A DNA stretch of 62,246 nt, filler included, from Kipferlia bialata (Eukaryota), in NCBI GenBank assembly GCA_003568945.1. It is 8 parts of 7 records of this genome, joined end to end, with 100 filler letters (N's around TTAATTAATTAA, not from the genome) between each part and the next. Parts side by side here need not be neighbours in the genome. Positions count along the whole stretch, not along the records: positions 17,913 to 30,117 come from BDIP01001118.1; 7 more parts are not named here. The stretch is one strand, 5' to 3'. Made by a program: the position numbers and the translations under genes. The notes below the pieces were generated by a model. The model was not told the origin of the DNA and searched no databases. It saw only the letters and a program-made list of their open reading frames with translations. Shown one piece after another: positions 2,492 through 58,623 of the stretch (position 1 is its first letter; every line of letters begins with the position of its first letter).

Positions 2492-3092
2492 TATATCTGG
2501 TGGAGTCAGTTGAAGATGTCTGTTAGAGACTCTGAAGAGTTGGAAAGATTCCGACGGAAACCGGAGGGGAAACCGGAGGGTCGGATATCGTATATAGAGA
2601 AAGAATGGTCCAAAAGCGGGTGACTAGCGCCGGAGGCCTGAGTGAGAAGGATAAAGGGACACACAGAGATACATAGAGTGTATTATCTTCTCGATGCCTT
2701 CTCGAGAGAGAGAGGGAGAGAGAGAGCAGTTGATCATTGGTCCTCTCTCAGTCTCTATTTCAGTCACTGGTCTGGAGAGGCTATTGGGTTTCAGGTTCTC
2801 AGGAACGCCATTGCCCTTGTCGTTTGCCGACCTCCTACACTCTAGAGGTCGGCCTCTGTGAGTCCAGCGTCTGACACCTGTGACCAGTCTTTAGCCCTGC
2901 TAATGGAGTCTCACGAACCCTATTTCTTCGTCCCAAGATGCGTATTGTCCGAACAATCTCTATAGTCTTCACAGAAAAGGTATAACGTCACTTGAGTCCT
3001 AAAATACAGAATATATTCAACACGGGCCACTGCCTAGGCGACAGGGATATGACACACTAAGATACAACCTGGTATCCGCTGGAGACACCTCT

Positions 3093-6000: not shown

Positions 6001-9000
6001 ACCCTGGGCGGCGTATCTGTCTCTGACCTCGGCCTCATAGGATACCCTCTCGGTCTCCACAAGGTGCAGGGCATCGCTGTGCTGCTGGCGAAGGGTGTCC
6101 ATCTCGCCCTGGTACCGCTGCTTGGCAGCCTGTACAAGGGCCTCACCCTCAGCCCGGTGCTCTCCTAGCTTCTCGGCCAACTCCAGCCTGAGCCTGGTCT
6201 CCCTCTCCTCCAGCTCATCTCTGGCTCTCTCCATGGCCTTAGCCCTCTCCCTCTCAGCCTGCGAGGCCTCCTGGGCCAGCTGGGCCTTGAGGGCGTCCAT
6301 CTGGGCAGCCATGTCCCGCCTCACCAGCTCCACAGTAGCCTCGGCCTTGGCGCGGATGTCAGCCTCATACACCAGGCGCTGTCTCTCGCCCTCGGCCTCT
6401 CTCTCCTCCCTCTCCCTCTCTCTTCTCTCCCACTCCTTGGCCTCTGCCGCCATCCTCTCCTGCAGGCTGTCCTGGGAGGCCTGTCTCTCGGCATCAACCT
6501 TGGCCTGGCACTGTCCACGCACACGCTCCACCTCGGTCTGAGACTGCATGCGCACCCCGTGCAGCTCATTCTCGTGAGAGGCGGTCAGGGTTGCTAGCTG
6601 CCTCTCCAGGGTGCGGTTGGCCTCGGCCCTCTCCTCCTGGTGGTGGGTCTGCTGGTTGGCCATGAGGGCAGCGTACTGGGCCTGGACCCTCTCACTGAAC
6701 TCGATCCTGGACACCTCGAGCGCTCTGATACGCTCCCTCTCCCTCTCCTCCATGGCAATGTGCTCGTTGCGAAGGGCCTCCTCCCTGGGCATGAGAAGGA
6801 TGTAAAAGGTGAACCGCAACACAAAGAAACATAGGTATATATGCATATCGTACCTGACTCCCATTCTCACTGCCATGTCGGCCTCAGCATCGGCAATGGC
6901 CGCTGCATAGCGTGCCTTTACCTCCTCCTCCTGCTTGACAACAGACAGGCGGACCTCGGCAACAGCGGCATCGTGAGCAGCAATGAGCTGGGGATGAGAT
7001 TCTACAGTCTAACTGTGATACCGAACTAGTGAAATAGTGCAATGCCCTACCTTCTCTCTCTCCTCCTCTGCGGCTGCGGTGGCCTCTGCCAGGGTAGCGT
7101 CCAGGGCCTGTCTCTCGTGGGCGATGAGGGTGTTGTACCTCTCCCTGACCTGGGCCTCGGCCTCTGTCTGGGCGGCCTTAGCCCTCTCCACACTCTGCCT
7201 GGCCTCTGCCTGAACAGCCTGGGCCTCCTCGGCCAGGGAGTCCTTGAGCTGGGCCAGGGTCTCTCTGTGCTCAGCGTCCCTCTGCACAAGCTGAGCATCG
7301 CACTCCTTGCGGACAGCGGCCTCACGCTCGGCGGCCTCTGCCTTCCTGGCCTCCTCCTGCTCGGCGACATACTGCTGGGCAGCGGCCCATCCCTGGGCCA
7401 CCTCGTCTGCCCTGGCCTTGCTGGTGTCGGCCAGAGCCTGGCGCTCGGAGTCCAGGAGGGAGTCGTACTTGGCACGGATGGACGACTCATACTCGAGCCT
7501 CTCCCTCTCCACAGACTGCCTCTCGCGGGCCACTGCCTCGAGACCTGCCAGACGCATGGCCTCGTACCTGTCGCCCTGGGCTGCCATGTCTGAGGCGTGG
7601 GAGGCCACAAGGGCGTCTCTCTCTGCATCGGCCTCGGCTCTGACGGTCAGCAGGGCTTGGGCATGGGCACTGTGCAGATCGGTGATGTCGCCCTCGAGCA
7701 ACAGAAGCCTCTCTCTGAGTACCTCTCTCTCTGCCTCATGCACAGCGCCCATCTCGGACAGAGCTCTAGCATGAGTCTCGGCCACCTTGTCGGTCTGCAC
7801 CGCAAAGGCCTCTCTCTCCCGCTGCAGCACAGCCCTAGTCTCCTCGGCCATAGCCACACGCTCGGCCTCCACAGCAGCCTGGGCAGCCTCTCTCTCTCTG
7901 TCGAGCTCCACACGCAGAGAGGACAGGGCCTCCTGGTGCTGGGCAGTCCTTGGAGTGAGACACAGTAAATACACATGACAGGGAAATGAGACGAATGACT
8001 ACAGGGATAACACGGCTCTCTCGCCAAACAGGAGTCCATACCTCTTGGCCAATGCCTGAGTGTGCTCAACTCTGAGGGCACTCTCGCGGCGCTCGTGCTC
8101 CTCTCTGGAGGCCTCAACAGCCTCATTGCGCTCCTTGAAGAGGACAAGACGCTCGGCCTCAAGCTCAGACTGTAGCTGGAGGCGCCGGGTCTCGTACATC
8201 TGATCCAATTGGGTGCGAAGAGCAACCTCTCTCTCTGCCTCTGCCTCTGCACGGCGAGTCTCCCTCTCTCCCTCTCCGGCTAGGAGCACAGCTCTCTCGG
8301 CCTCCAGAGCAGCCTCCCTGGCCTTGATCTCGGCGGCAGCGGCCTGCCTGGCCTCCTCGACCTGGGCGTCCATGGCCTGCTGCCTCTGCTCCAACAGCGA
8401 GGCAGACTCAGCCCTCACAGCAGCCAGTCTCTCCTCCTCGGCGGCATGGTACTGCTTCAGCAGCTCGTCGTGGGCTGCCTGTGCCTGCTGTGCCTGGGCC
8501 TCAAAGGCATGGGTCTGGGCCTCCAGGGCCTGGGCAAGGTCGGCACGCAGGGCCTCACTGGCCTGCTGGTGCTGTGCGGCAAGGACCGAGACCTTCTCCG
8601 AGTGGGCGTCCTCGACAACCTTGAGCTTGGCTGCCTGGTCGGCAACAAGAGCCTCAACGGCAGCAGAATGGCTCTCCCTCTCCCTGTTCAGGGACTCAGA
8701 GTGCTGGGAGGACAGCAGCTCTCTCTCAGCTGCAAACTTAGAGGCAGCCTCTGCCTGCCTCTCTCTCTCTGCCTCCTCGGACTTGGCCATGCGGTCCCTC
8801 TCTGCCTCTCTCTCCTGCTGTGCCTCGGCCTGCAGCTGCACACGAAGGCTGGCCATGGAGTCACGGTGGGACGCCAGAAGAGCCTGCCTCTCGACCTCGC
8901 ATCCCTCGGCCAGCTTGACCTGGGCCTCGGCGAGGGAGTCCACCTCACGCTGGATCCGCTGGGGTCAGAACATAAAGCAATACAAAATGAGAGGTTTCAT

Positions 9001-12000
9001 GATACCTTGTCGTTTGCCTCTCTCTCAGTCTCTATCTGCTTCAGAGACAGAGCCTTGACCTCCTCGATACGAGTGTTGCACTCAGACAGCAGGGCCTCCC
9101 GCTCAGCCTCCCGCTCAGCTTCCGTCACCCTCTCGGCCTCCTGCCTCTCTGCGGCCTCGGCCTCGGCCTTGTTCTCACGGGCAGCAGCCTCGGCAGCGGT
9201 GGCAGCCATCCACTGCGCCTCTCTCTGCCGGGCCTCCTCATCCACCTTGGCGGCATAGGCCAGTCTGGCGGCGTCCATGTCCCTTCTGTCTGCCTCCAGG
9301 CCCTCGACCCTCACGGCCATCCCGGCCTCCAGGGCAGCCTCTCTCTCCACAAGCACGGCATCCAGCCTGGCCCTCAGGGCGGCCTCGGTCTTGGCAGCGG
9401 TCGCCTCCAGCTCAGACCGCAGCTCCGCCTCCCTCTCGCGCATCTGGACGTCCACGGCCTCCCTCTGAGCCAGGACCCCTTCGACGAGAGAGGCATGGCT
9501 CTCGGCCAGGGCAGTCTCCCGCCGCTTGTGGGTCTCGAGCAGAGTGGCCTCCCTGGCGGCATAAGCTGCGTCGAGGTCGGCACTCTTCTGCTGCACCAGG
9601 GTCTCCACCTCGCCCTGCACGGAGGAGAGGGCACGCTCCACATCACGCTTAGAAGCAGCAACCTGGGCCTCAACGCGACGCTCACAGTCACGCCTAAGCT
9701 CCTCCTTCTCCCTCTCGACCTCTCTCTCTCTCTCTCTGACCTGGCGCAGATGCCTGTCGTTGGCCCTCTGAGCAGTCTCCTCGGCCTGCTTGACGGCCTC
9801 CTCCACTCTCTTCCGCACTGTCTGCTCGTACTCCAGCCTCTCCTGCTCGAGGCCATCCCGGGCGGCCATCACTTGAGTGTGCACGTCGGCCTTGGCGTCA
9901 AGCCTAACCTGGGGTCAGGGAGATAAGGTAGAGGAGAAAACTACACCAGGAAAATTGAGAATTCGTTACATCATGTATACGCAGCCACATACACGGGTCC
10001 TTAAGCAAACAGTTACCTGGCTGAGCTGGGTGGTCAGTTGGTCAATAGCAAGGGAATGGTCGTGAGTGAGAGCATCAATGCGGGCCTCGGCCTTAGAGAG
10101 GAGGTCCTGCTTCTGACCCTCCCACTCCGACACAAGCCGCTGTGTCTCAGCTGCGGCGGCCTCTGCGGCGGCCTCTGCCCTGGCCTCCACGGCCTCGAGG
10201 GCAGCGGTGTGAGTGGCTACCAGGGTCTCCACGCGGGCATCCGCTGCAGTCTTGGCAGCATCGACCTTCTTCTGGTAGTCAGCCTCAAGGGCAGCCTGCT
10301 CTGACGCAAGCTGGACCCTGGCGGCCTCAAGCGCACGCTCTGCCTCTCTCTCTCTCTCTGCCTCTCTCTGCCTAATCTGGGCCTGGGCAGCAGCGGCCTC
10401 TGCACGGATGGTGTCCCTCAGCTGCCTCTCTGTGTCACGCATAGCAGAGATAGTGGCGTCTACCTCAGAGCGCAGGGCAGACTCCTTCGCAGCAGCCTCC
10501 CTCTGCATCTCCTCCCTGTCTCTCTCTCTCTCCGCCTGGCGCTGAGCTGTGGCCATGGCCTCTCTCTCCCTGTGGGCGGCACTGGCGGCCTCCTCTCTCT
10601 CCTGGGCCTGGGCCTGCAGGGCCAGCAGGGCCTCCTGGTGGCTCCGTCTCTCGGCCTCCATGGCCTCGGCGTGGGAGTCACGCATGGCACTGAGCTGGGC
10701 GTCAACCTCTGCGAAGACAGAGCAACGGAACTGGGCTGCGTCTGCCTCTCTCTGCTCCTCCCTAGTCTTGCGCTCCTCCTCTGCCTCCCTCCGCACCCTC
10801 TGCTCGTTCAGAGCAATCTCAGCGTCCTTCTCCCTCAGTCTGTCGTACAGGACTCTGTCGGCGGTGTCGGCCCTCTCCCTCAGGGCATTGAGCTGGCGCT
10901 GCTTGTCCTGCATCTCGGTCACCATGCGCTGCTCGTGCAGCAGCGCCTGCTTCGACAGCTCCCTGTCGGCGTCTGTGCGGAGCATGGCGGTGCGGGCCTC
11001 TGCGTCCTGCTTGAGGGTGGCCATGGCCTGGGAGTGCTGCTTGTGGAGGGTGGCCTCGACCTGGGCCAGGTGGGTGGAGTGCAGCTTGGCCTGGGCGTCG
11101 GACTCGGCCTGGTACTGGGTCAGCGCCTCCTCCAGCTCCAGACGCAGGGCCTCGGTCTCACGCCTGGGGGTGGGCAGGAACCAATAGGCTAATAGACAGT
11201 AAACATACAAACAAACACGCTTAAAGGTGAGTGGTGAAGAAATAGGAGAACACACCTGTACTCATTAGCCTGGGCGGAGTACTGCTCCTTAATGACAGCC
11301 AGAGCACTCTGCCTGTCTGACCCCAGACACGACTGCAGCTGCAGCTCGCGCTGGTTGGCCTGCTCTCTCTCCCCTGCGATGGCCTCTGCAATGTCTCTGT
11401 CCCTCTCCAGCTGGGCCTGCTGCAGAGCCTGTCTGGCGGCAGACAGCTCGTTGCGGGTCTCCTCGAGCAGGGCGTTGTGGGACTCCATGGCCTCGTCCTT
11501 GGCCTTGGAGAGGGCCCCCTCAAACTCGGCTCTCTTCGAGAACTCGGCCTGCTGCAGCTCCATCAGCTCCTGCTGGCCACTGCGGATCAGCTCTTGAGCG
11601 CGATCGTGCTCCTGATACGTAAGATTTGGTACTGCGATACACATGAAGGCAAGAGGAGGACGGCAACTGACATATATATATATATATATTACATGGACGT
11701 CGTTGTGAGCATCGAGTACCTGTGTGAGCTGGGCCTGCAGGGCCTGGACCTGGGCCTTCATGCCCTCCCTCTCAGTCTCGAGGAGAGAGTTGATACGGGC
11801 TCTGTGGTCTGAGACCTGTGCATCGCACTTTCTCTTGTACTCCTCGTATGTCTCCTTGGCTCCCTCCACACGCCTATCACAGGACGCCTCGATCTCACTC
11901 TGATGGTGAGACACATATAGAAATACATATGAGCAAAAGGCCGGGCGAGAATGCAACCCACCCAGGTCATGTGCACAAGCATATGATGACATATATACAA

Positions 12001-12148
12001 GGAATATGAATACCAGTACCTGTCTGCGCCTGAGCACTTCATCGAGCTCGCTGGTCTTGGCGTCCAGCTTCACCCTCATCTCCTCCCTCTCGAGGTTGAG
12101 CTTGGCACGGGCCTCGTCCAACTCAGAGCGCATGCGGTCCTCTAGGAT
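3093..12148 (-). CDS. 5'-partial giant coiled-coil protein with C-terminal MAP65/Ase1/PRC1 microtubule-binding domain (at least 2,664 aa, 13 exons)
   Basis: Exons 12020-12148, 11720-11899, 11256-11611, 10017-11163, 9006-9908, 8042-8958, 7051-7948, 6854-6987, 4727-6784, 4254-4651, 4098-4176, 3700-3991, 3093-3596 sum to 7,995 nt in frame. The last exon has ATDPERLF..STRLMGEDRER..ELTKV..L...VRAYEAKHGRVFKFRGKPYLE, matching the PRC1/Ase1 conserved motif. Confidence 0.85.
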
Positions 12149-12210
12149 CTGGGTCAGATGGGGAGGAGGGGGGGGGGGGGGGGGGGGGGGGCCCCGGAGT
12201 CAAGAGACTA

Positions 12211-12310: not shown

Positions 12311-12791
12311 TTTTTTTTTTTATATAATCCCCCCCCCCCCCCCCCCCCCCCCTATACCCAGTGCTTATCTTGTCTGCGTGACTGTGTGTTTCTTCTTCAT
12401 TGACACTCATTGTATATATGACTGTGTTACAATTGTATGTTTACCATATAGTCGTATATCCTCTATCCACTTACACCAGTGGGGCTGTGCCATCATATAT
12501 ATGGGTCTGGCCTATATCGTTGAGATACCATCACACACACTCTCTCTATATATGTATATGATTGTGCACTGATTCCAGTGGGGCAATGCCATCACTGGTG
12601 GATCTACCTCCTGTGTCGTTGAGACATCCTCTCTCTGTCTCTCTATCTATATATATATAATTGTATAATTGTGTTCTGATTCCAGTGGGGCAATGCTATT
12701 ACTGGTGGCTCTGCCTCCTGTGTCGTTGAGACATCCTCTCTCTCTCTCTTTATATATATATATGTATATATCCTCTATCCACTTACACCAG

Positions 12792-13327
12792 TGGGGTAAT
12801 GCCATTACTGGTGGATCTGCTTCCTGTGTCGTTGAGACATCACCCTCTGAGTATAACGGAGCCCCCAGCTTTATACTCACACACACTGCAAATGGCATAT
12901 TCGAGACCACAGTGACAGGTTGGTTTTGTATACATACACATATACACACATATATATGGGATATATGTATAATGCGTACACTGCTGATGGTATATTCGCG
13001 ACCACAGTGACAGGTGTGTGGGTTTCACACCCTCCCCTCCCCCCCCTCTCCCATATATTTATATATGTGTGTGTCTTTTTACTGACCCACAGGAGATGTC
13101 GACCTGGCCACTGTCGGAGACTATGTCCTGTACCCCAGCTATGGAGAGACAGTCATATCTATGGTATGTGTCTCAGATGTATGTTTGGGTCTCTCTTCCC
13201 CCCCCCCCCCCCCCCCTCCCCAACCCCAGGTGCCGACGTCAATGAGATTGACCCCCGGCTGAGGGAGCTGGAGAGACAGGGTACCCCATCGCCAAAGGGG
13301 GAGGGCAAGGAGGCGGATCTGTGCTAG
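12792..13327 (+). CDS. 3' end of a spliced hypothetical gene
   Basis: Exons approx. 12792-12918, 13093-13163, 13230-13327; ends ...KGEGKEADLC*. Confidence 0.6.
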
Positions 13328-13604: not shown

Positions 13605-16376
<2,772 letters not shown>

Positions 16377-17912: not shown

Positions 17913-18012
17913 ATGTCCTGCCCACATTCAACCAGTACATGAGGATACTGGTGGGGATGGGAGGTATATGCTATATATACACAAGATATGTATTTATCTA
18001 CAAGATTCAGTG

Positions 18013-18044
<32 letters not shown>

Positions 18045-18933
18045 TTATATACTTCTACCCACATTCAACCAGTACATCATGATACTGGCGGGGATGGGAG
18101 GTATGTACCAGTATTCAAGTACATATATATATATATATATATACTATATGTGTACATTCAACCAGTCCATATACTAACCCTCCAGACCCTGTCCCCGGCC
18201 TAGCTGTCACATCCAACTATGTCAGAGTCATATATACATATATGTATATATATATATATATATAGAGGAGAGTATATTTATATATATGATATCCCTCTCT
18301 TACCCTAGACCCTGTACCTGGCCTAGCTGTCACATCCAACTATGTCAGAGTGATGTATGCACTCACACTGGGGATATCAGTAGGGGATCCTGTGTTGATC
18401 AGGTATAGTATATATCTTCACAATGATTCATTCATATCTATCTCTCCCTCCCTCCGTCACTCTCAATAAGTACCCTATCATACTTTGTTTCTTACGCGAT
18501 ACCCTTTCTTTACCGTTTCTTACGCGATCAGGGGTGGCAGAGGCACTGGCAAGTCCTATGCAGTGTCTGCATACGCACTGAAGCAGAGTGGCATGTCGAG
18601 GTATGGGTCTATGTATGTATATTTGTGTGTGTGTTAGTACCTAAGTATATGAAGATTGCAGGGCTATCAAGGGAGGTCTGCGGATGGATTTTGGTTTGTA
18701 TATACATTATCAGGGTTGTATATATATATGTATGTATCCACTCTGACACTAGTGTTCTGTGCCGCGTGTCCCCTGCCACCAACATATATCCATCACGTTC
18801 TATTATCTAAATATGTATATATATGTGTGTGTGTATGTAGTTATATATCCTCATATCAGTGTCCTGTGCCGCGTGTCCCCTGCCACCAGCCCCAGGGACA
18901 TACAGGCACTGTCATCAGCCGCAGAAGGTATAC

Positions 18934-18968
<35 letters not shown>

Positions 18969-20814
18969 TATATGATATATATGGTATATATACATATATA
19001 TGTACACCAGTCCCAGGGACATACAGGCCCTGTCATCAGCCAGAGAAGGTATATCTGCATATATATGTGTATACAATATATAGTACACATATGTCTTTGA
19101 CTCTCTCTAACTCCAGCCCCCTCTGATGGATCCAGCCATGGCAAGACACACACTACTGTCTCTCTCTTTCTATATGAATATATATGTATATATATATCTA
19201 TATCTATATATGTATTAATACATATATCTCACCCCAGCCCCCTCTGATGGGTCCAGCCATGGCAAGACAGGACTTGGGATAGACTTGGGTGAGATACAAT
19301 ATTGATATAATAATGATAATATATACACATATATATATATATATATATATATTAGACCTGGGTAGGAGTCATCATACCGCATATATATCGCACCTTTACT
19401 CACATGCTACATGATTTCCCCCCCTCTTTCCCCTAGGTCGCACCCTCTCTGCCACCATGGTGTCCACTGTGATCTCTCTCCACCCACCCCCCCTCTCTCT
19501 CTATATATATACTATAGTGCTTACTGTCAGGTCGTACCCTCTCTGCCACCATGGTGTCCACTGTTGCCTCCATGGCCACATCCATGGCATCCATGTCTAG
19601 GTATAGGTTGTGTATACGCCTGTGTATATACAACACTATATATTAATTCAAGTACATTGTGGCATCAATATCAAGGTATAGACATAGATAGAGTCTAATC
19701 AATAATAATATGTAATAGGTAGATTCATATATATATGCCTATGTACTCTTAAATGTCATTATATACAATTATATATATATATGTATATATCTAATCATGT
19801 CAGGTCGATGCTGCCCTCCAGTCCCTCCCTGACACATATGAATATATTATATATACTATTACATATATATATATATATATATTCTTTAATGTGTACTCTT
19901 GTGATACCGGGACACTTACCATCAGGTCGATGCTCCCTTCCAGCCCCTCCCATCACCCCTGTACACCCATATATATATATATATATATATACCTATATAT
20001 ATATATATACACATACATATATATATATATATATGTCTATCTAATCCTGTCAGGTCGATGCTCCCCTCCAGTCCCTCCCTGGCCCTCACCCACATGGACC
20101 AGCACGGGTATGATATATGCAAAGAGTATTTAGTGTATACAGTAACTTTTCGTACTTTCATTGTTTTAGTATCCAAACATACCATCTTGTATGCACTCAG
20201 ATTCAGTGGATACATATATCCATATCTATATCTAACCCTAGTAGCAATGGCGCCACTCTTGTTGTCCTAGACACTGTAGACCATACCAACACCCATACCA
20301 TATATATATATAAATACTATACTATATATATACATATATAACTAACCCTAGGTCTAATGGTGCTACACTGGTTGTCCTAGACACTGTAGACCAGACCAAC
20401 ACCCATGCCATGCACGCACTCAAGGAGAGCATCGACTACATCCAGCACCCAGTCATGCTATCTAGGTATATATAGTGTAGTATACAGTGTATATACTCTA
20501 TACTATAGTATATGTATAGTGTATATATACTATATATACCCATGCCATGCACGCACTCAAGGAGAGCATCGACTATATCCAGCACCCAGTCATGCTATCA
20601 AGGTATATATAGTGTAGTATACGGTGTTTATACTCTTTATGTCTCTCTCTCTCTCATGTATATGTAGTCTCTCACATACCAGGTGTGTATTAGACCCTGA
20701 GCTTGAGCAGAAGTCTCTCTCTCTCTCTCTCTCGCGCTCTCTCTCTCTATATATATACATATATATCTCACTCTAGATGTGTATTAGACCCTGAGCTTGA
20801 GCAGAAGGCCCTGG

Positions 20815-20848
<34 letters not shown>

Positions 20849-21462
20849 AATATCTAACCCTAGGTGTGTATTAGACCCTGAGCTTGAGCAGAAGGCCCTG
20901 GTGGTACAGCTCAACCCACTGAAGGAGGAGGATTTCTACCAGGTATACATCAGTATACATCAGTATATACGAGTCTGTTTATTAGTGTGTTTACAAGTAT
21001 AGTTCTGGCCCTGGTATGGTACAGCTCAACCCACTCAGAGAGGAGGACTTCTATCAGGTGTGTATGTGTATGTATATTGTATGTATTGTCATGTATCCAA
21101 GGGGATGACTAGCCTTACACCCAGGTCTTTGACTCTCTCTTCTCCACATTTGTCATTAGTCTATTTGTGTTAATAGTGGTATCACTGGGTATTAGTGTAT
21201 ACCTCACCCTCTCTGCCTACGTTGCGTATTCTTGTGTACCTCACCCCCAGGTCTTCGACGCTCTCTTCTCCCCCGAGGAGATACTCACAGGGGACACACA
21301 GGAGATATGTCAGGTAGTGGTTATATATGAATGTGTATGTATATATACAATTGTATGTATACATATTGTGCTATGTGAATATTTACCAGTTATACATACA
21401 TGCCTGAGGAGATACTCACGGGGGACACACAGGAGATATGTCAGGTATATATGTATGATATA

Positions 21463-21494
<32 letters not shown>

Positions 21495-22276
21495 GATATG
21501 CTGGACTATGTATATATCTGCATGTTATGTATATATATGCCTGATTAGATACTACAACACCCAGGAGATATGCCAGATATCAGTTCAGTCTCGAGTATAT
21601 ATGTAGACTCTATTTGCAATCAGAAATTATTATGTATACACATATTACTATGAGAGCCTCATCCCAGTCCCTGGCCCATGCCATGGTCATCCTGAGAGTG
21701 CATTTGTGTGTACTATTACAGACATGATATTCATATATATATATGTATATATGTATACATTGCATTCATATATTGTGTCTGACACTCAGTCCCTGGCCCA
21801 TGCCATGGTCACTCTGAGGGAGTCCCCAGCATTTGCAGGTAATGTGTACATGTATATTATATAATACGTGTAATGTATTTCCTGTGAGATGGTGAGATCA
21901 GAGCTGTTATACGGGCAGTAATTTGTAATTGAAAACACATATTCTCTCTCTCTCCTATACATATATACATACATATTTTGATCATCTAGGTCTCGGGGAG
22001 ACATACGCCCTAGGCTCCAACCTATTCTTCCTCTCTCTCTCTGTCTCTCTCTCTCTCTCTGCAATACTCTTAAACTTATGATCGTAGGTATAGGCTTAGG
22101 AGAGACCTACACCCTGGGCTCCAACCTAGTCTATCTCTCTCTCTCTGTCTCTCTCTCTCTCTCTGTATATATGTGTGTATTGGTGCTGATCGTAGGGATA
22201 GTCCTAGGCGAGGCCTACACCCTTGGTTCCAATATATTCTCTCTCTCCATAATAGACTTAAACTAACAATTCAGGT

Positions 22277-22313
<37 letters not shown>

Positions 22314-22566
22314 AATACTCTTTACTAACAATTCAGGTATAGGCCTAGGAGAGGCCTACACTCTAGGCTCCAACATATTCTTCCTCTCTCTCTCTCTCTC
22401 TCTCTCTTCAATGCTCTTCAACTTAAATTTCAGGTATCGGTCTTGGAGAGGCCTACACCCTAGGCTCCAACATATCCCCCCTCTCTCTCTCTCTCTCTCT
22501 ACTATGTAGTATTACTTACCAACCAGGCATTGGCCTAGGAGAGGCATACACTCTAGGCTCCAACCT

Positions 22567-22603
<37 letters not shown>

Positions 22604-22918
22604 AATACTCTTAAACTAATGATCGTAGGTATAGGCCTAGGAGAGGCCTACACTCTAGGCTCCAACCTGGTCCTGGGCTCTAACATAGTCTCTCTCTCTC
22701 TCTCTCTTGGTGATGAGGAGGACATAGATGGTATAGTGGAGATAGATGGTATTGAGGGTATAGAGGGTCTAGATGGTCTAGAAGGCCTGGGCGGAGAGGA
22801 AGAGGGGGAGAGAGAGACTGGCTCCAAGAGACTCCTCTCTGACTGGCAGTGTCTGCACAGACACCCCGAGATAGTCGCCAAGGTGCTATATATATATACA
22901 TATGGACGTATATATAAG

Positions 22919-22949
<31 letters not shown>

Positions 22950-23006
22950 GTATATAGGATACGGTGGTAGTGTCTACACAGACACCCCAAGATAGTGGCA
23001 AAGGTA

Positions 23007-23058
<52 letters not shown>

Positions 23059-23135
23059 GTATATATGTATATACACAGTTTACTGCCTCACCTTTAGGCC
23101 GCCAAGCTAGCCTTCTCTGCCTTCCTGCGTGAACA

Positions 23136-23171
<36 letters not shown>

Positions 23172-25768
23172 CATATATATTAATATATATACTACCCCCA
23201 GGCCGCCAAGCTAGCCTTCTCCGCCTTCCTGAGGGGTAGTGAGACAGAGGTGCAGAGGTGCATGGACACCCTGACTCAGGCATTAGAACCATGCTTAGGA
23301 GCAGATAGGTATTAGGATATATATATATATATATATGCATGTATACCTATATATATATATGGAGAGAGACAGAGGTGCAGAGGTGCATGGACACCCTGAC
23401 TCAGGCATTAGAGCAATGTCTGGGTACAGATAGGTATTATTGATACTATGTATAAACTGGTAGTATACTATACCTATATATATATACAGAGAGAGAGAGA
23501 GAGAGAGTCTGGGGACAGATAGGTATTAGGATATATATTCTTGCTATGGTCCGCTTATATATTGTGTATTCACCCCCAGCCTAGCTCCTGTCTCCAACAT
23601 GGGTCTGTTACTGGGCCACCTCTGCCCTGGCAGACACCCAGTGTCCATATCTAGGGGACCTATTGCTAGAGAAGGTATGTATATATACGTACATATATTG
23701 TATACATNNNNNACCTATTGCTAGAGAAGGTATGTATATATACGTACATATATTGTATACATACACCCAGTCTCCATAGGAAGGTGACCCATTACATCAG
23801 ATGGTATGTGGATACATATATATATATATATGTAATGTTAGTATATGTGTATATAGCAAGAGGACCCATTACATCAGAGGGTGAGTGTATTGTAGTGTAT
23901 TCCGACTTATGCGTGTTTCTGTTTGTCTCACCTTTCGGCAGTGAGAGTGACGATGCTGTCCACCCCATCTATCTATCTATATATATATATATGTCTTCCT
24001 ATATATATACTAATCATAGACAGCGAGAGTGACTCTGACGATGCTGTCCACCCCATCTCAGACTTTGTGGGTCCAACCACAGACAGTGGACACTTCAACC
24101 ACAGGCCAAGGTATATATACATTTATATATATATATAGTATATTCTGTCACTATTTCTATATGTACATAGTATACCTGTCCACAGACAGTGGGCACTTCA
24201 ACCACAGGCCAAGGTATATATATTGTAATCTGTGACCAACCCACCTATATACTCTCTCTCTCTCTCTCTCTCTATGTATATAGTACTATATCTTACCCCT
24301 CAGATTCCTGTATGTGGAGGACATGACCATGGACAGGTCACCATATACACCATTAGATACACCATATATACTCCATATACTGTCTCTTTCTCTCTCTCTC
24401 TCTCTGTGTGTATATATATATAGATATATATACATATACATATATATATATATCTTACCCCTTAGGTTCCTGTATGTGGAGGACATGACCATGGACAGGT
24501 CTCTCTACCACTGGATAGGCCAGATCACAGGTATCTATGCCACTCTGTATTCAAATGTATATAGTGGTAGTTCAATCTATATTTATATAGCTACATATAT
24601 CTCATGCCAGGTCTCTCCTCTTCCCCCGACCAGACCACCCTGCTGGGGTCACCATTCACAAGAGACAGGGACGAGGAGGCTGGGAGGAGGTATTGAATCA
24701 TGTATAAATATATTATATATATAGGACAGTACTTATAGTGATGTATATATATAGTAGTCTATTGACAAGGGACAGGGACGAGGAGGCTGGAAGGAGGTAT
24801 ATATGCATTGATACTTGTATATTATATAGCTTATATATATATATGTACTTGTAGTGTTATATATATAGTGGTCTATTGACAAGGGACAGGGAGGAGGAGG
24901 CTGGGAGGAGGTAGTATATCATGTGTATAGTCAGTGTTTATAGTGGTATACATATCACCCTTCACAAGGGACAGGGACGAGGAGGCGGGAAGGAGGTAAT
25001 ATTTGTATTGGTACTTGTATATTATATATCTCATATATATATATGTACTTGAAGGGTTATACATTTATAGTGGTCTATTGACACGGGACAGGGACGAGAA
25101 GGCGGGAAGGAGGTATTATATCATGTGTATAGTCAGTGTTTATAGTGGTATGCATATCACCCTTCACAAGGGACAGGGACGAGGAGGCGGGAAGGAGGTA
25201 TGTTCCTGTCTACATACAGTAGCCATGCAGTATTCATGTTTCCCTAGTTTACATCATCAAGTGATTGTTGAGTACATTCCCATAATGATACACTCTCACC
25301 ACTAGGTACCGTGACCGTAAGGACAGGGAGATTGCCTCTCTCCTACAGCACCAGGGACAGTGGGTGTGGGGAGGGGGGTCAGCAGGTGTGTAGAGATATG
25401 ACATCACTTCTTTGCCCTCTATATATATAGTTGGAGGATTATGTGTTTTATACTCACTCCAGGCACTCTGGTGTCAGTCACCCCTTCCCTTCCTGTCTTC
25501 AACACCCTGTGTGCATATGCCCAGGCATGGGGCACGGCAGGGGGGGATGCGGTGCCAACACTGGCTGTGGACACACACCCAGGGCAGGTATACACTCTAT
25601 CGTACTATATACTACCCTCTGTAGTATTACTGAAGGCATATATCTATTGGGACCCTTACATGCTAGTCTCTCTCTCTCTCTTCATCTCTCTATTACTGTA
25701 ATTATAGGTCCATCCAGCCTCTGTGGATAAGGATATGAACATCCTAGTATTTGGTGACCCCTCTGACA

Positions 25769-25799
<31 letters not shown>

Positions 25800-26065
25800 C
25801 TCACCTTATAAGGTGCATCCCGCCTCGGTTGATAAGGATATGAACATCCTTGTGTTTGGTGATCCCTCTGACATGGACACGGCCCTAGCACACCCATTCA
25901 CAGTCATGAGGCTCACACTTGGTTAGTATATATATATAGCTATAGAGAGAGAGAGAGAGAGAGAGAAATGTAGTGTATATGGATATGTATATATATATAT
26001 GTGTTGATATGGACACAGCCCTGGCACACCCATTCACAGTCATGAGGCTGACACTTGGTTAGTAT

Positions 26066-26119
<54 letters not shown>

Positions 26120-26594
26120 GTGTATATGGATATATGTACATTAATATACATTGATATGGACACCTGCCTGGCACACCCATTCACGGTCATGAGGCTGACA
26201 TTAGGTATGCTTTTAGTGTATGTGTTCAATTCTGTTGAGACTCTCACATCCCATGTGACGTGTTCACCTTTGTGACTGACAGCCTTGCCCATCCTGCCAC
26301 TATATATATATATATATCCATATTCATATATAAATACATATATCCTACTACTACTATACTATCCTACTACCTCTTACCTCTAGACGATCAACAACCTACC
26401 TATATTAACATCCACTAATATATATATATATATATATAGGCGTGTATATATATCCTACTACTACTATCCTACCTCTTACCTCTAGACGATGTCTTCACCT
26501 TTGTGACTGACAGTCTGCCCATCCTGGCTGCAGCAGCATGTACCCAGGCCAGGGACAGACTGTGGGAGGTATGTATACTAAGATACATATATAT

Positions 26595-26625
<31 letters not shown>

Positions 26626-29110
26626 GAGAGAATGCATGTACCCAGGTATGCATACTAAGATACATCTATAACAATACTTGTGCTATATATTATGAGAGTA
26701 TGAACACAGGCCAGAGACAGACTGTGGGAGGTATATTTCTTTCTCTCTCTCTCTCTCTCTCTAGCCCCCTATTAACCCACTCAGTTTGTGCAGTCTGTGG
26801 GTGAGCGTGCCTTCTGTGGGGTTGTGCAGGACACAGTCACTGAGATCATATTGGAGGCCTTATCTGCAGCAGGCAAGGACTCTACTTATCCTCATTGTTG
26901 TATGTGTTTAGTATTATGTATTATGTATTGACTGATATATATTGTATGATTACTGATATATGCTAACCCCCTAGGCACTCTCTCCACCCTCCTGACTCCC
27001 ACTGGTGACACCGACACACCCAATGCAACACCTGGGACACCAGTGGTCAAGCAGCCTGAGGTATTGATATGCATATGTATACACATTCCTATATGGGTTA
27101 TACAGGTGATTATGTATGCAAGCATTTTCCCTCTAACCCCCAGTCTGATGGCAACCAGTCCATAGTGAGGGAGCACAAGTACACTCCCCTCCCCCTCGAC
27201 GCCTCTGCCATCCTAGCACTGTTCAAGTTCCCATCGCTGCCCTCTAGGGGTGTAGCACTGGCTACTAAGGTACTCACTCTCGTGTAACTATGTTGGGTCA
27301 GACTTCCTCTGGTTATCGTGTAATTGCCTCCACTATTTATGGTGTTTCCTGTGCTATCGTGTAGTGTTTCTTACTCCAGGGCCTGGCTGATGGCATTGCC
27401 TCTAGTGAGGGCCCAGTTAAACATATTGATTCACATCAAATATAGTAATATGTATACTACTTTAGTACTATTGGGTAGTTATTTCTCACTCCAGGGCCTG
27501 GCTGATGACATTGCATCCTGTGAGGGCCCAGTTGAGACTGCCTCCTTGGTCATAGCAAGGAGGGCAATGATCACACTGCTACAGGTTAGTGAGATCATAG
27601 TATCAGTATATATATACGAATATGTATGTATGGTATGGGTATATGTATATTTTCACGTGGGGGACAGACCTGTATATATATATATATATATATATGTAGA
27701 GAGAGAGAGAGAGAGATGCTGACTCCTCCACTTCCTGACCCCCGAGGGTACCATTGAATTATGTGACATATAAATATATATAATAATAATATATATAATG
27801 TTGTTTGTGTATGTGTGTATAGGGAGAGATATTGACTCCAGGTCCTGACCCCTGAGGGCACCATCGCCCCCAGGAGTGCCAGCAGTGGTCTAACCGAGGC
27901 ACTGCAGCAGTACTATTACCAGGTATCGGGAGAGATATGTGTATTATATTGAAGTATGATTGAAGTATGACCGAATTCTCTACCTTACCCTAGCACCAGG
28001 CCCACTTTTCCATCTTCATCTCTCTCTCCATATATATACATACATACATAATATATATATATATATGTGTATGTGTGTGTGTACGTCTAACCCCAGCACC
28101 AGGCCCACTTCTCCATCGGCGCAGTGCTCAAGGACGTGGTGCTACACTCACTAAGCAGCAGCACAAGTACAACCACACCTATAGAGGAGGGAGAGGACAC
28201 GTCTCTACAGTCCCTACAGTACTGGAACGATGTCCACTCCTCTACTAAGGGAGAGAGAGAGATCGAGGCTGATGCTGTACCCTGGGGTGCCCTTGTCTAT
28301 GCACCCAGGCTCAGTGACCCAACAGCACTGGACACAGAGGCATTGAGGGGGCAGCTCAATGTGAACCCAATCACAAGGTATACTGCACATTGTTTGTATG
28401 TAGGAGTGTATATGTATACCCATATGACCCCAGGCACTACTTTGGGGGTCCAGACAGAGACAGGATGTCTGTGGAACTGTTGACACCAGACTCGACAATG
28501 GCCAGGTATTGATACACATACACCATATAGTATATACATATATACGCTACTATACAGTATATATATGTATATATACATGTATAGGGGGAGAGTGTATCAG
28601 TGGATATGGAACTGTTGACACCAGACCAGACTCGACAATGGCCAAGTATCCATACTATACAGTATGTATTATCTTCATTCCCAAATCATCTATTGTCCAC
28701 CGCCGTCTCTTCGAGGACTCTGCAATATATACAGTATATATATAATTATGTATATATTGTAGTGCTATGTAGTATTATTCTATTCCTAACCATCTAGGGT
28801 GCACCACCGCCTCTCTGAGGCCTCTGCTGTGCTGCAGACAACAGACACAGACTCGGTGGCACAGGTATTGAATATATGATAGCCGCTAAGGTATTAAGAG
28901 GTGTTATGTTCATGAATATTTGTTTATGAGTAGTATGCTGTATATATTCATTTCTCACCTAAGGTCCACTCCCCCGTCCTCCTCTCTCTCTCTCTCTTTT
29001 TCTCTATCTCTCTCTCTCTATTCATTACCGTACATCTTTACCTCATGTTCACTCCTCCGTGACACTGACACCCCATATTAGTATATACACATTCGAGTAT
29101 TTTCCACATA

Positions 29111-29147
<37 letters not shown>

Positions 29148-29274
29148 TTCTCACCATAGGTCCACTCCTCCCTCCTCCTCGCTCTCTCTCTCTCTCTCTC
29201 TCTATTCATTTGTGTATTATATATCTTTACCTCAGGTCCACTCGTCTATCCTGTGTGACACTGACACCCACAAG

Positions 29275-29322
<48 letters not shown>

Positions 29323-30117
29323 TCATTAATCTCTATTCAATAATATATATATACCTTCTTCTTACCACAGGTCCACTCCTCCATCACCGATACCCACAAG
29401 GCAGGGTCATATTCATATATATATATATATGTATATGTAATACTATATACATACCTTTACTCCAGGTCCACTCCTCCATCACTGATACCCACAAGGCAGG
29501 GAGGGATGCAGACCTATACACCCATACATACATGTGTATATATGTACGAATATTATATATCTTTAACCCAGGTCCACTCGTCTATTCTGCGTGACACTGA
29601 CCCCCACAAGGCAGGGAGGGATGCAGAGAGTGACACCAAGAGATTCAACATGGTGGTGGTGCTCTACATACCCGTGGACAGCATCAGAACAGGTATTCTA
29701 TGTACATGCCTGCTTATGTATCTCGTTGTATGTTCTTCTCTCTATTCCATATCTCACCCCAGGCTCTGTGCCCCTGTGCCTGACCCCCCCTGGCTGGTTC
29801 AGCACATATGTCACAAACCCATTCCACCATGTAAGTATGGTATATATATACCCATTCCACCACGTAAGTATTGTATATATACATGCACATGTATCATGTA
29901 TTCGTCTATACTTACCCTCTATATAAGTATGTATATATATATATGCTGGTTCAGCACATACGTCACTAACCCATTCCATCATGTAAGAATGGTATATATA
30001 CACTAGTATATGCGTCATGTATTTGTATACACTTACCCTCTCTATATATATGTATATATATATGCCTCCCCCCCCCCCCCCTGTCAGCACAGACGTCACT
30101 AACCCATTCCATCACGT
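17913..30117 (+). CDS. Internal fragment of a very large, many-exon gene with an AAA+-like P-loop (midasin/dynein-related style)
   Basis: Spliced exons 18309-18402 and 18532-18600 give GDPVLIRGGRGTGKS (Walker A); 20352-20465 gives a Walker-B-like LVVLDTVD. Dozens of further short exons lie on the same strand. Confidence 0.6.
21990..22690 (+). repeat. Array of 7 diverged copies of an acceptor plus exon 5' end (GIGLGEAYTLGSN), separated by (CT)n
   Basis: Copies start at about 21990, 22088, 22196, 22337, 22434, 22527 and 22629 (the last is the intact exon). Confidence 0.92.
24655..25200 (+). repeat. Array of 6 copies of an exon 3' end plus GT donor
   Basis: ACAAGGGACAGGGACGAGGAGGCNGGRAGGAG|gta ending at 24689 (intact exon), 24796, 24910, 24995, 25112 and 25197. 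Confidence 0.92.
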
Positions 30118-31259: not shown

Positions 31260-34200
31260 TTAGTACACCTTCTTGATGGCGGTGGCCAGGAGGAGGGGGT
31301 TGCGCCAGTAGGGGCTGACGGGGATGACCTAGGGTCAGGGACAATAGTACGTATCCACAGAACGAGTACATAGAACAGCACATAGAGAGTGATAGTATGG
31401 ACCTCCTTCTAGCAGAAGTATGTATGTATACATATAGTGAATAGGATGCAGTATGTAAGGTACCTTCTTGTCCTTGCACCCTGCCAGTCCGTACACAGCC
31501 ATCCTGGCGGCCCTGACAGACATCTCCTCAGTAAAGGACATCTCGTCCTCAATCTCTACGTACCTGAGAGTAAGACATATTCACATACATACATATATAT
31601 ACACATATACTGAGAGAGAGAGAGAGACGGACATCTCGTCCTTAATATAGACATACCTAAGGGTTAAGTGAGAGAGAGAGAGAGATAGAGGCAGAGAGAG
31701 ACACCACGTACTGTCCAATCATGGCCAGGTTGGTAGAACCCTCAGGGATCACAGGGGGACGGTCGGCCATGGCACTAGGGGTGAGATCCATATATACGAA
31801 GGCACCTACACAATACAAGGGAGTAAACTAGTTAGTGAGTTCATGTATATATATATGCATATATATATATATACCCACCGGTTGTTGAAGTGTGCATCGA
31901 TGTATGGCATGGAGCATGGGATCACATTGACGATGTCCTGCTCGTGGCCCTGGGGGGTGAGACAATACACACATTACTACCCACTCTGACAAGTATTTGA
32001 TACTATAACAAGGATTGAGTAATGTGACTAGAACCTACACGTACCTCCATCCTGAGGTGGCTCATGAGTTCAGTAAAGATGTCTGCACCGGTGGCCTCCC
32101 TGACAGTCTTGTTGACATAGTCACCTGGGTCAGCAGGAGTATCAGTACAGTATATCAGTCAGTGTATGTACTGATATAGACATAGTCACCTGTGATGTCT
32201 GTGTGCAGCATGTATCCCCAGAACACAGTCTGGTTCTTGGGCTGGCCCCTGGGGGTTAGACACTCATACTATGATGTGTATATGATATGTATGTGTATTC
32301 ACTATATATATAGCACAGTCTGGTTCTTGACCTGGCCCCATATATATGTTTCAGCCAGTGAACATCCATAGTCAGTATATATGGTAGAACCACTACATAC
32401 ACTCTACACATATAGAGTGTACCTGAAGTGTGGCTGGGCAGGTACAACGATGGACATGCGCCACCTGGGGGTGAGGGGACATATAAGGTTAAGTAGAGAG
32501 CACTAAAGGGGACACACACATAGAGAGAAAGTAGAACGTCTACTGCCTGGGGGTGAGGGAAAAGAGGCAACGAGCTATATATACATGAGATAGAAGGAGA
32601 GAGAGAGACTCTCACACCTAGAGTCCACCAGTGTGCACAGAGCACCGGAGCCTGGCACATTGCCAGAAAAGGCCTCGATCTCCTAGGGTATCAGCAAGGG
32701 TATCTAAAATCTCAGATAGATTTGAATGCGTGTCCACATGGTATACACATATATAGATAGAGAGAGACAGAGTATAGTGTGTTACCTTGAGCAGTCTGTT
32801 TCCCTTCATGGTCACTGTGAATGAGTGCCAGTAGGACTCCTCCCACTTGCCTGGGGGTAAGAGGATACCTATTATAAATATGTATATATATATATACTAC
32901 TGCACAAGTGAGGGGACATCCACTATCCCAACCTGCGAATGGCTCTGGGTAATGGTCCTATTACTAATGGATACACAATAATGGATGAATATTTGTATAC
33001 TGCAAATCATTATACCTCATACTAAGTATATAAATATGTACATAGGAGTATATATATATGAGACCTAATACGTATATATATATTTATATTTACATACATA
33101 AAAATAGTATATGTATATGAGACCTCATACACTTATCATACCTGCGAATGGCTCTGGGTTGCCAAACACACCCTCCCTCTTGGTGCAGAGCTTCCTCCAG
33201 AGGTCAAAGGACTGGGGGTGAGACATAAGGGATTGGCGCATTACTCACAGAGAAATAATGAACCATACACCACGTAGAGTATCTATATATGTGTATGGAT
33301 ATATATACCTTGGGGTTCTCTGGGGCAGGGGGTGCGGCATGGGTGAGGTCACCCAGGACAGCACAGTCACACATGGCGCCTGGGGGTAAGGTATATATAT
33401 ACACTAGTATATATACATTTAGAGAGAGAGAGGGGGAGGGGGAGAGAGATGTATATGCATGCACATACCGTTAGTGATGCAGCACATGTCCTGGGGTCTG
33501 AGTGTGATGGTCTCTGGGGTGCCTCTCCTCTCGATGGACAGACCAGTCACAGTGATGCCTAGGGGTGAGGATAGATGAGGAGACATTGAGGGAGATCTGG
33601 GAGAAAACACAAATACATACACATGTCAGTAAATGGGATGATGGTAATGCACAATGTACCTTCGCCTGGTGCCAGAGTGACGTCCTTGACGAGGCAGCCC
33701 AGCTGGAAGTCGACGTTCTCACCCTGAGGTCAGTGACATGACGGCGGAGTATTCAAGATAGAACTTGCATATACAGGATGTGTGAAATTATATATATACA
33801 TCATTACCTCGAGGTGCCTCTGGAGAGGCCTGATGACAGACTCGTACTGGTTGAGAGGGGTCCTGGCAACGGCACCCAGGGTGTCAAACTTGTTGAAGAA
33901 CTTGATGCACCTGGAGTGAGAGAGGGAGTGATAGAGAGAGAGAGAGATGGAGAGGGAGAGACAGAGGGAGAGAGCATGCTATTTGCTGAAGAACTTGATG
34001 CAGCTGGAGTGAGAAAGTATGGTACTGTAAGTACTAATATAAGGCGGTGATAAGAGGGAGAGTACCCCCACCTGCGCATGTATCTCTTCATATTGAACAC
34101 TGTATATACACGTATCTACAGAAAGACAGAGACTAGAATATATACATGCACAGATATAGAGAGATGAGGTGAGAGAGATGGAGACTCCACCGGCGCATGT

Positions 34201-35182
34201 ATCTCTTCATCTCAAAGACCGAGGACCAGGGCTGGAAGGCAAAGGTGGTCTGCCACATGAACCAGAAGTTGGTCTGGGGTGAGGGAGAGGAAGATACGGG
34301 GGGGGGGTATACTGCTGCATATGGTAGAGTGTGAGAATGTTACATGCATATATATATATATATAGAGAGAGAAAGAGAGAGAGAGACCGACCTTGTAGAA
34401 GTGGGGGTGACCACCAAAGAAGTCATCGATGGACACGTTGTCAAGGCTGGGGGTGAGACAGTGGTACGACACAGAGAAGACTGCACTGACACGAGTGGCA
34501 ACATGTAGTCCTATCCAAACACACCTCTTGTAGGACACTGTGGACAGCTTGGCCAGCATACATATCTATACATATATCAATACAAATACATATATATATA
34601 TATATATACATATACAAAGGTGTATATGTATACCTCTTGTAGGACACTGTGGACAGCTTGGCCAGCAGCATGCGGCACTTGTTGCACAGACCTAGGGTCA
34701 GAGAGGTGAGAGAGGGAGAGAGAGACCACAGAGTATCACATGTACTCTGCAATACGTGGTGAATATATATATATATAAGCATACACACATACCCATGTCT
34801 GTGGCCTCCAGGATGTTCCTGTCCTTGTCCACGAGTGTATCACTGTATAGTATATATACATACACATATATAGTATGTATATACATACACATACCCATGT
34901 CTGTGGCCTCCAGGATGTGCCTGTCCTTGTCGACCAGTCTGGCACTGGAGCAGGTGGGGTGGGCGGCGTCAAAGGCCACAATCTCCTGAGGGGTTAGAGA
35001 GAGAGAGAGAGAGATAGAGGTGGGGTGGGCAACGTCAAAGGGCACAATCTCCTTGAGGTCAGATACACAGTCAAATAGAGAGAGAGAGAGAGAGAGAGAA
35101 AGACGTGGGATAGGCGGCTTCAATGGCAACACTCCAGGGGGGTTAGAGAGAGGGAGACCGTGCGGAATATATGTGTGTGGGG

Positions 35183-35216
<34 letters not shown>

Positions 35217-35333
35217 CTGTACCTCGTATGTGCTCTTTCCGAGCTGGTCGATGGAGGGTGTGGTGCTGAGGAGGTCCCAGAAGTTCTCGTAGAGGTCGAG
35301 GTTGAGCATGCGTCCACCACGGCAGACAAAGCC
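31260..35333 (-). CDS. ohyA: Oleate hydratase (MCRA family) coding region, about 19 short exons
   Basis: GFVCRGGRMLN..YENFWDLLSTTPS, TNFWFMWQTTFAFQPWSSVFEMKRY, RTPLNQYESVIRPL, SFTEEMSVRAARMAVYGL. TAA at 31260. Confidence 0.92.
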
Positions 35334-35396
35334 CTGAGGGTTAGAGAGAGAGGAACATGGGAGACAGGTAGTGGTATATATGGGGATGGGCGAGGG

Positions 35397-35433
<37 letters not shown>

Positions 35434-35447
35434 GTTTCCCCCCCAAA

Positions 35448-35480
<33 letters not shown>

Positions 35481-35519
35481 AATACATGGCGATCCTACAG
35501 TGGCAGACTCACTCCATAC

Positions 35520-36567
35520 CTCCTCGAACTCCTTGGCCTCGTCCAGAGCCTCTCTGGCGTCCTGCCTCTCGGCCCTGACACCCCCAAGGTACCCGGCAAG
35601 GTTCTCGTACACAGCCAGACAGAACCCAACCACACCTCCACACAGGTCCAGCACCAGGCCCTGCACATACAGCCATGCCATGATGAGGGAGGCCCACACA
35701 GAGTAGAGCACCCCGTAGTGTCCCTCTGCGTCCCCGTCCTCGTCCTCTGTCAGCTCCTCAAGGGCAGACATGGGCTCGATGTCCTCCATCTGTACCAGGG
35801 GCTCAGCAGCCTCAGCACTCTCCTCTCTCTCCTCGGGGGCCTCGACCTCCTCCTCCCTTGCCTCCTCCTGAGTCTCACGGACAGAGGGGGAGACCTGGGC
35901 TGCAGACTCAGGAGCCGGGGGCACGACAGTTGGGGTCATCTCCTGCTCATCGACACCTAGAGGACGGGTGTGGTCACCAAACGCAAACTTGGGCTTCACC
36001 CCACTGCGAGCAGCCCTGAAGTTAGACGTATGTGATGGATCACTAAACAGATCCTAGGTTGAACTAGAAGAATACCAAAGTGACTCGTTTTGTGGAAATA
36101 CTCGCCATACCTCGCCTGAAGGAAAGGAGACTGGCCCATCAGTGCAGCACGAAGCTCGCTGAGGGTAAGACTTGCGCCGATGATAATAAAATTCACCAAC
36201 GTGTGTCAAATTAGAGATATAGCTGCCTGAAGTTGTTCACTCACCCACTCTGGTCCTGTGCTAACTTGCGGTAGAGTTCCCTGGTGTGGTCTGTAACCTT
36301 CATCTCAACCTCTGAATCAGAGCTGCACTCCTCATACACTAGCCCTGCAGTGGAAGGGGGTCTAACGTTGGAGTTGTGAGCAGGGGATCCAGAGTACGCC
36401 TGGTGCAGATTGCTCACAGTGGGTGTTGCATCATCGTCTGCTGCACCATAATCGAAGGCAACTCCGTAAGCTGGCGTGCTAGCCACTCCCATTTGCTGCT
36501 CACCACCTGAGCCGGAGCTCTCATCATCTGAACCGTCCTCCTTCGGCTTTAAGAAGCTGGAGAACAT
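35520..36567 (-). CDS. Three-exon acidic/low-complexity region with a hydrophobic segment; either the N-terminal extension of the oleate hydratase or a different gene mis-joined at a poly-G tract
   Basis: Exons 36245-36567, 36111-36158 and 35520-36015 join in frame from the ATG and end in phase 0, matching the first hydratase exon. Confidence 0.7.
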
Positions 36568-58250: not shown

Positions 58251-58451
58251 TTTTGTGGGGGAGAGAGGAAGGGGGGGGGGGGGGGGGGGGGAGGTCCAGT
58301 ACATACAGGAGAGGTGGGATGTATATGAATATGGAGATTATACCTCACCTCCTTCTTTCTCTCTCTCTCTCTCTCTGTCTCTCTGTCTCTTTACCTCTAA
58401 CCCACTAGGGAGGATGAGTCCCAGCGTGTTTGGGGCAGGATTATGTTTGTG

Positions 58452-58497
<46 letters not shown>

Positions 58498-58623
58498 GTA
58501 ATATTCATATCTCCTTCTTACCCTCAGAGAGGACGAGTCCTAGCGTGTGGAGGAGCTGGTCTACTTCCTCTCTCTCTCTCTCTCCCTCCCCTCAGTCCTT
58601 GTTAACCACTACTAACTCTCTAG

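Follow-up and report, generated by a model that had tools for sequence, protein, structure and literature searches.

Partial splice-junction copies in introns of a Kipferlia bialata gene are skipped by its assembled transcript

How is an exon joined at the right place when its acceptor is preceded by a series of near-copies of itself, and how could such a series arise? Both questions are raised by one intron of Kipferlia bialata, a free-living protist. The DNA analyzed here (the window; 62,246 nucleotides, filler included) consists of eight contigs of this species joined by N-linkers, all of which were covered by our copy survey, and the finding sits in the contig at 17913-30117 (BDIP01001118.1). 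The translated exons of this contig match a single protein, KIPB_004976 of K. bialata (P0003; 976 aa, partial), whose contig is equally long, and P0003 is recovered letter for letter from a model of 31 exons bounded by AG and GT/GC. Intron 22 (from 26873) opens with GC in this model. For P0003, Pfam gave AAA_7 alone, a weak match to dynein-type AAA below the cut-off, and leads from the Atlas also point to dynein-type AAA modules. No relative was found among 1.84 billion representatives, and two protein searches returned none. Because an RNA-type contig reaches 4534 nt upstream of the coding part in this contig, the complete product is likely to be a divergent AAA+ protein of very large size, for which no relatives were detected. 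At the acceptors of 17915-29830, a branch-point-like motif lies just a few bases ahead of the AG, an arrangement known from diplomonads and trichomonads.

The array consists of six copies of an acceptor with about 38 nt of exon start, plus a bare seventh acceptor, and ends at the intact exon (Table 1). Each copy carries 38 nt resembling GIGLGEAYTLGSN, two further codons, and then a (TC)n tract; in the intact exon 12, an 18-nt internal repeat precedes its own (TC)n. The units are about 100 nt each, and tracts of 30-33 nt lie between several of them. The bare acceptor (at 22275) is followed by a few exon-like bases only, and AG is kept at all seven decoys. According to the original prediction, this was a seven-copy array; the six exon-like starts and the intact exon stand, each directly after an AG, but the decoy AGs number seven, not six. 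A sequence check showed that a donor before the (TC)n tract is absent from all array copies.

Table 1. Features of the host gene, of its intron 11 array, and of other loci with copies in the window.
Feature	Position	Strand	Details
Host gene fragment KIPB_004976 (P0003, 976 aa, partial; degenerate AAA+ module)	17915-29830	+	31-exon model
Exon 11 (of the contig's part of KIPB_004976)	21790-21838	+	donor GT at 21839
Intron 11, contains the array	21839-22628	+	790 nt; exon model and spliced-contig offsets
Copy 1	21975-22060	+	AG 21988-89; exon-like 21990-22021, lacking 6 nt of the exon in frame; then (TC)n
Copy 2	22061-22164	+	AG 22086-87; exon-like from 22088 (3 S, 1 N); then (TC)n
Copy 3	22165-22250	+	AG 22194-95; exon-like from 22196 (6 S, 1 N)
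Stub	22251-22311	+	branch-point-like motif, AG 22273-74, GTAG, then (TC)16
Copy 4	22312-22409	+	AG 22335-36; exon-like from 22337, identical to exon 12 over its first 38 nt; acceptor flank differs
Copy 5	22410-22501	+	AG 22432-33; exon-like from 22434 (4 S)
Copy 6	22502-22601	+	AG 22525-26; exon-like from 22527 (3 S)
Intact exon 12	22629-22882	+	254 nt; internal 18-nt repeat (LGSNLV LGSNIV); exonic (TC)n 22689-22707
Downstream copy of exon 12 end	22965-23005	+	with its GT
Intron 17, five copies of exon 17 end with GT	24690-25305	+	partly a 202-nt higher-order repeat
Intron 29, at least five copies of exon 30 start	28865-29571	+
Oleate hydratase P0004, K. bialata	31263-36567	-	758 aa, 22 exons; protein match

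All of the synonymous codon variants named in that prediction are present in the array, and its count of 16 synonymous (S) and 2 non-synonymous (N) differences between the copies at 22088-22527 and the intact exon was reproduced exactly over the first 38 nt. Outside this count, the two codons that separate LGSN from the (TC)n tract differ more often non-synonymously; adding them gives about 18:6 for the same five copies (by eye). Over the first 38 nt, the six copies hold 19 distinct variants, 15 of them at third positions, and comparisons of copy with copy (15 pairs) give 74 S and 19 N differences. The units differ pairwise at 3-10 of these 38 nt, and the acceptor types do not track the exon variants. 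K-mer peaks suggest that K. bialata is diploid (PMC5874029). The six units are all distinct, and no second haplotype, allele, or paralogue was found on the exons covered by contigs of two runs, X1 and X2 (one sample, possibly the source data of the assembly). For this reason, the variants are too many for diploid heterozygosity, as had been proposed.

Does the transcript use any of these decoys? No run is recorded as RNA; X2 was taken as the RNA run by guess, and its contig skips GT..AG introns, with three of the listed ones lacking from one contig. The offsets of the spliced X2 contig equal the exon model at all seven exons checked and put the start of exon 12 exactly at 22629, with no extra base, which leaves no room for any array copy. 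At exon 16, the RNA-type contig carries the first base of the true exon, not that of the copy. The proposal that the spliceosome skips the decoy acceptors is borne out by these offsets, which fit the last acceptor, 22629, in a consensus contig where minor isoforms would be invisible. The array is thus confirmed as a stack of partial acceptor and exon-start copies that the assembled transcript skips, and regular splicing is undisturbed by it in the consensus RNA-type contig. If used, five of the seven array decoys would lead to a stop. The two nearest ones would keep the frame open, with copy 5 adding 195 nt and copy 6 adding 102 nt and no stop in either. GT opens five of the seven array decoys and the intact exon 12 as well.

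Real as it is, the seven-copy array is an extreme case of a gene-wide, multi-gene pattern and of a known type, the "mirage," neither of which the original prediction had recognized. Exon-end copies occur in 23 of the 30 introns of KIPB_004976, and the seven introns without copies are 56-129 nt long. Our detector found 56 copies adjoining their own exon in this gene versus 6 weak distant matches. A match was present in 33 of the 60 adjacent exon-intron pairs versus 0-2 of 60 in five intron shuffles, so the copies are not due to chance. Exon-start copies lie upstream and exon-end copies downstream (0 of 56 reversed), and no copy includes both ends of a whole exon; this one-sided polarity is the one expected from tandem duplication across a single boundary. 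Intron length in KIPB_004976 follows 100 + 115 nt × copies (r2 0.88). One of the 56 copies, at 23713, is probably a scaffold-overlap duplicate (23658-23762) without differences and was dropped from the shuffle and length analyses. Two of the intron 29 copies have lost the same 9 nt in frame and carry silent changes on either side. Of the 30 acceptor-side copies, 23 are followed by a dinucleotide repeat (background 0.48), and a microsatellite precedes 14 of the 26 donor-side copies, which is the background rate. The copies have no Rfam match, and they match the adjacent exon without any family common to unrelated introns, which does not fit introners or mobile repeats.

The splice signals of the decoys are mostly intact across the gene: 23 of 26 retain AG, and 21 of 22 retain GT. 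Decoys and true sites score alike with 30-site matrices (Wilcoxon P = 0.54 and 0.36), and decoys score well above other intronic AG and GT. Weaker decoy sites are thereby rejected as the reason for skipping; as decoys are as strong as true sites, position rather than strength would have to decide. In-frame tolerance as a general rule was rejected too, with 12 of 40 decoy uses being multiples of three (the chance rate). An open frame is kept in just 5 of these 40 uses gene-wide. Upstream copies are more numerous for exons opening with GT than for other exons (P = 0.011, one-sided, post hoc).

Copies also occur elsewhere in the window. The oleate hydratase gene has nine copies in 7 of its 21 introns, and six more genes on four other contigs have 16 copies, at a lower density than in KIPB_004976. 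Oleate hydratase P0004, which we take to be a bacterial-type enzyme, has a long acidic N-terminal extension and an intron-rich gene. A second acceptor array at 12455-13010 comprises three copies, the intact exon (12792), and one copy on the donor side (9:3 silent-biased in a hand-set frame), and two acceptor-side copies and one donor-side copy lie around an exon at 58624 (58397-58815; 7 silent : 1 non-silent, hand-set frame). A very long Glu/Ala/Arg-rich, coiled-coil-like gene on the minus strand (3000-12200) has large exons and almost no local repeats, and a perfect 55-nt duplication at 1468-1578 is possibly an assembly overlap. Judging by known motifs, three fragments are presumably phosphofructokinase-like (14750-15350, minus strand), protein kinase-like (44200-45000), and GHSxGG lipase-like (60560-60720).

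The differences between copies and exons are strongly biased toward silent sites in KIPB_004976. Over its 56 copies, we counted 114 S and 49 N differences (pS 0.245; pN 0.033), which corresponds to a dN/dS of 0.115, or 0.165 after substitution-spectrum matching. A dead copy that was identical to today's exon at birth is expected to have a dN/dS of about 0.5. The departure from 0.5 has P values of 8e-12 (spectrum-matched), 3e-12 (distinct variants), and 1e-9 (one copy per exon end), in which, as in the counts, the copies are not mutually independent. The bias persists when the array is left out, in both copy types, when each variant is counted once (92:43), and when each exon end is represented by a single copy (70:33). 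In dead-copy simulations (n = 300), the S share was 0.62 at most and never reached the observed 0.70; to match it, silent divergence would have to be five- to six-fold higher than a dead-copy model gives. N differences lean from GC to AT (27:8), as decay would, and S differences run both ways (41:51). Identity falls to only about 50% in the intron flanks next to a kept AG or GT, while AG, GT, and the branch-point-like A persist. An automatic indel tally gave 10 in-frame and 24 frame-shifting cases, many of them at alignment edges.

In the oleate hydratase gene, the copies have S 6 and N 13, i.e., no silent bias, which fits plain neutral decay. The six other genes give 22:15 pooled (ratio 0.29) and range from 7:1 to 5:7 and 0:2, with frames set by hand and some first-codon prefixes off by one base, touching edge codons only. 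In a frame-free measure, mismatch spacing lies above one third in two contigs, the focal one (0.49) and the last one (0.52), but not in the four others with data. As the differences across KIPB_004976 resemble those between functional homologues, its copies most likely diverged as working sequence and died recently.

Selection acting on the copies now is one alternative, either through occasional decoy use (yielding longer isoforms in frame, or recursive re-splicing at AG|GT) or through conversion back into the exon that purges harmful changes. Copies 5 and 6 would yield open in-frame insertions, and frame-open decoys have S 14 / N 1 versus 77 / 33 (P = 0.07, post hoc). The GT that opens five of seven array decoys and the richer upstream copies of GT-start exons (P = 0.011, post hoc) also favor this idea, although the intact exon itself opens with GT. 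Across the gene, however, open frames are kept in 5 of 40 decoy uses, multiples of three are at the chance rate (12 of 40), and the silent bias is seen in frame-closed copies too. Conversion at a speed sufficient for purging would also wipe out the 25% silent divergence. We regard present selection on the copies as unlikely.

Alternatively, these may be ordinary mirages, i.e., copies identical to the exon at birth that decayed neutrally, the silent excess being due to unusually fast synonymous change in the working exons of the gene. The oleate hydratase gene fits this account, as does the direction of the N changes, and the protein evolves so fast that no relative exists among the 1.84 billion representatives. 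However, silent change in the exon must then be five- to six-fold faster than neutral change in the neighboring copy. Furthermore, the copy-to-copy comparisons in the array are likewise silent-biased (74 S / 19 N), and the flanks are far more diverged than the N sites. This makes neutral decay from today's exon a rather more doubtful explanation than selection on the copies.

An assembly artefact, in which alleles of a mixed culture were chained serially via the (TC)n common to intron and exon, is improbable on the available contigs. Tracts of 30-33 nt do separate several units, and four units (copies 2, 4, 5, and 6), masked as repeat along with most of the array when the X1 and X2 contigs were aligned, are unbridged by contigs; their order and the join to the intact exon rest on the assembly of the window. 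The separate X1 assembly, however, puts copy 1 in cis with exon 11 (21762-22020, record 3, depth 413) and copy 3 with the next acceptor, that of the stub (22183-22270, record 4, depth 390), both with zero differing letters. Three other exon-copy junctions within 20873-21444 are crossed by X1 contigs with zero differences (depth 377) and without branching; the exon 12 body has a comparable depth (323), depth being a weak measure. The single RNA contig has no variant letters, and at the points where most other copies end, the exon lacks a microsatellite. The probable scaffold-overlap duplicate nearby (23658-23762) and six other letters in a run contig at 23768-23790 are in line with an artefact. 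At 23658-23790, an identical 50-nt stretch flanks a 5-N gap and is probably a scaffold overlap. The sole X1 contig at 23768-23790, with its six other letters, is closer to the true end of exon 14, which hints at an unassembled extra or allelic copy. Finally, patching in of copies from paralogous family genes by ectopic repair would explain both the divergence resembling purifying selection and several distinct donors, but it is very improbable given that, at 80-85% likeness, no DNA or RNA contig with differing letters was seen over the exons (filters can drop records) and that neither protein search found a relative.

On balance, we somewhat favor an origin of the array through short tandem duplications that recurred at microsatellite tracts, with the products being skipped and carrying the sequence of diverged working alleles. 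Each unit would stem from a jump back over about 115 nt, through unequal exchange or through aborted homologous repair closed by microhomology. Metamonads are described as lacking NHEJ and depending on a modified HR system (PMC8516963), and TMEJ of abrogated HR leads to tandem duplications of 100 bp-10 kb in worms (PMC8654963). The unit of intron 11 is delimited by an exonic and an intronic (TC)n; these tracts may serve as convenient points of registration and would thereby account for the high copy number there. Next, only duplications holding one splice site would survive, and the spliceosome would tolerate them by joining the last acceptor and the first donor as a pair across the exon, presumably by exon definition or a positional rule and not by a choice based on site strength. 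The use of the last acceptor and the first donor is the observed outcome in the consensus transcript. Lastly, copies may have been templated on a diverged homologue, or may later have recombined beside another allele, in a very diverse population; they would have been dead only briefly, with about 3% non-synonymous decay. Both routes would need a silent allelic diversity of about 0.2, which we assume.

A broader proposal, possible but short of probable, is that introns of K. bialata grow genome-wide by splice-junction duplications of about 115 nt from diverged homologous chromosomes, archiving former functional alleles, and that a reduced short-intron spliceosome ignores tens of thousands of full-strength decoys by a purely positional innermost-pair rule. 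Organisms with short introns are generally thought to define introns, and intron definition would choose the nearest, wrong sites in the array introns of K. bialata. The dozens of natural full-strength decoys per gene open splice-site choice to direct testing in a lineage that has 87 of the 174 spliceosomal proteins surveyed (PMC6679479). Should the copies derive from other alleles, population diversity and recombination could be read from a single genome, and if the proposal is true, introns would be a record of past gene versions. Exon-end copies also offer a concrete route for intron lengthening. For annotation, the copies mimic exons and can mislead gene and variant calling.

Among known systems, mutually exclusive exon clusters (Dscam-type) also have serial exon-like copies with conservation at the protein level. 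Unlike in such clusters, no K. bialata copy combines an acceptor with a donor, and the transcript contig contains none of them. The main text of the genome paper has no mention of "duplicat," "tandem," or "microsatellite" (PMC5874029), and our search found no literature on Kipferlia arrays or on silent bias in mirages; subscription papers and the genome and mirage supplements, which lay outside this search, may bear on novelty. A 37-bp VNTR in intron 7 of human F7 is similar in having repeated functional donors of which the first alone is used, by position and not strength, but it is a near-identical minisatellite, on the donor side only and at one locus (PMC1557585). The polymerase theta duplications of C. 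elegans helq-1 mutants share short direct duplications with microhomology joints and are a candidate source of the units, whereas their described median is about 1 kb and their copies are identical, in a mutant background (PMC8654963).

The closest match is with the amphioxus mirages in the globin genes BflGb6/BflGb9, Adh3, troponin C, and PGBD5 (PMC3087553; PMC3902484). As described in the passages on them, these have up to six units and are likewise tandem duplications across an intron-exon boundary, at either end, with many AG/GT kept and normal splicing. The array has three mirage features, namely, tandem units that span the boundary, AG/GT kept in many of them, and undisturbed regular splicing. 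The amphioxus cases are single animal loci with 81-100% unit identity and concerted evolution, whereas in the metamonad K. bialata, copies occur in 23 of 30 introns of one gene and in at least seven other genes, with a near-constant unit of about 115 nt and mosaic, unhomogenised units. The strong silent-site bias of K. bialata has no counterpart in the passages of PMC3087553 and PMC3902484 on amphioxus mirages. Compared with mirages as described in these passages, the density, the metamonad host, and the selection signature are new.
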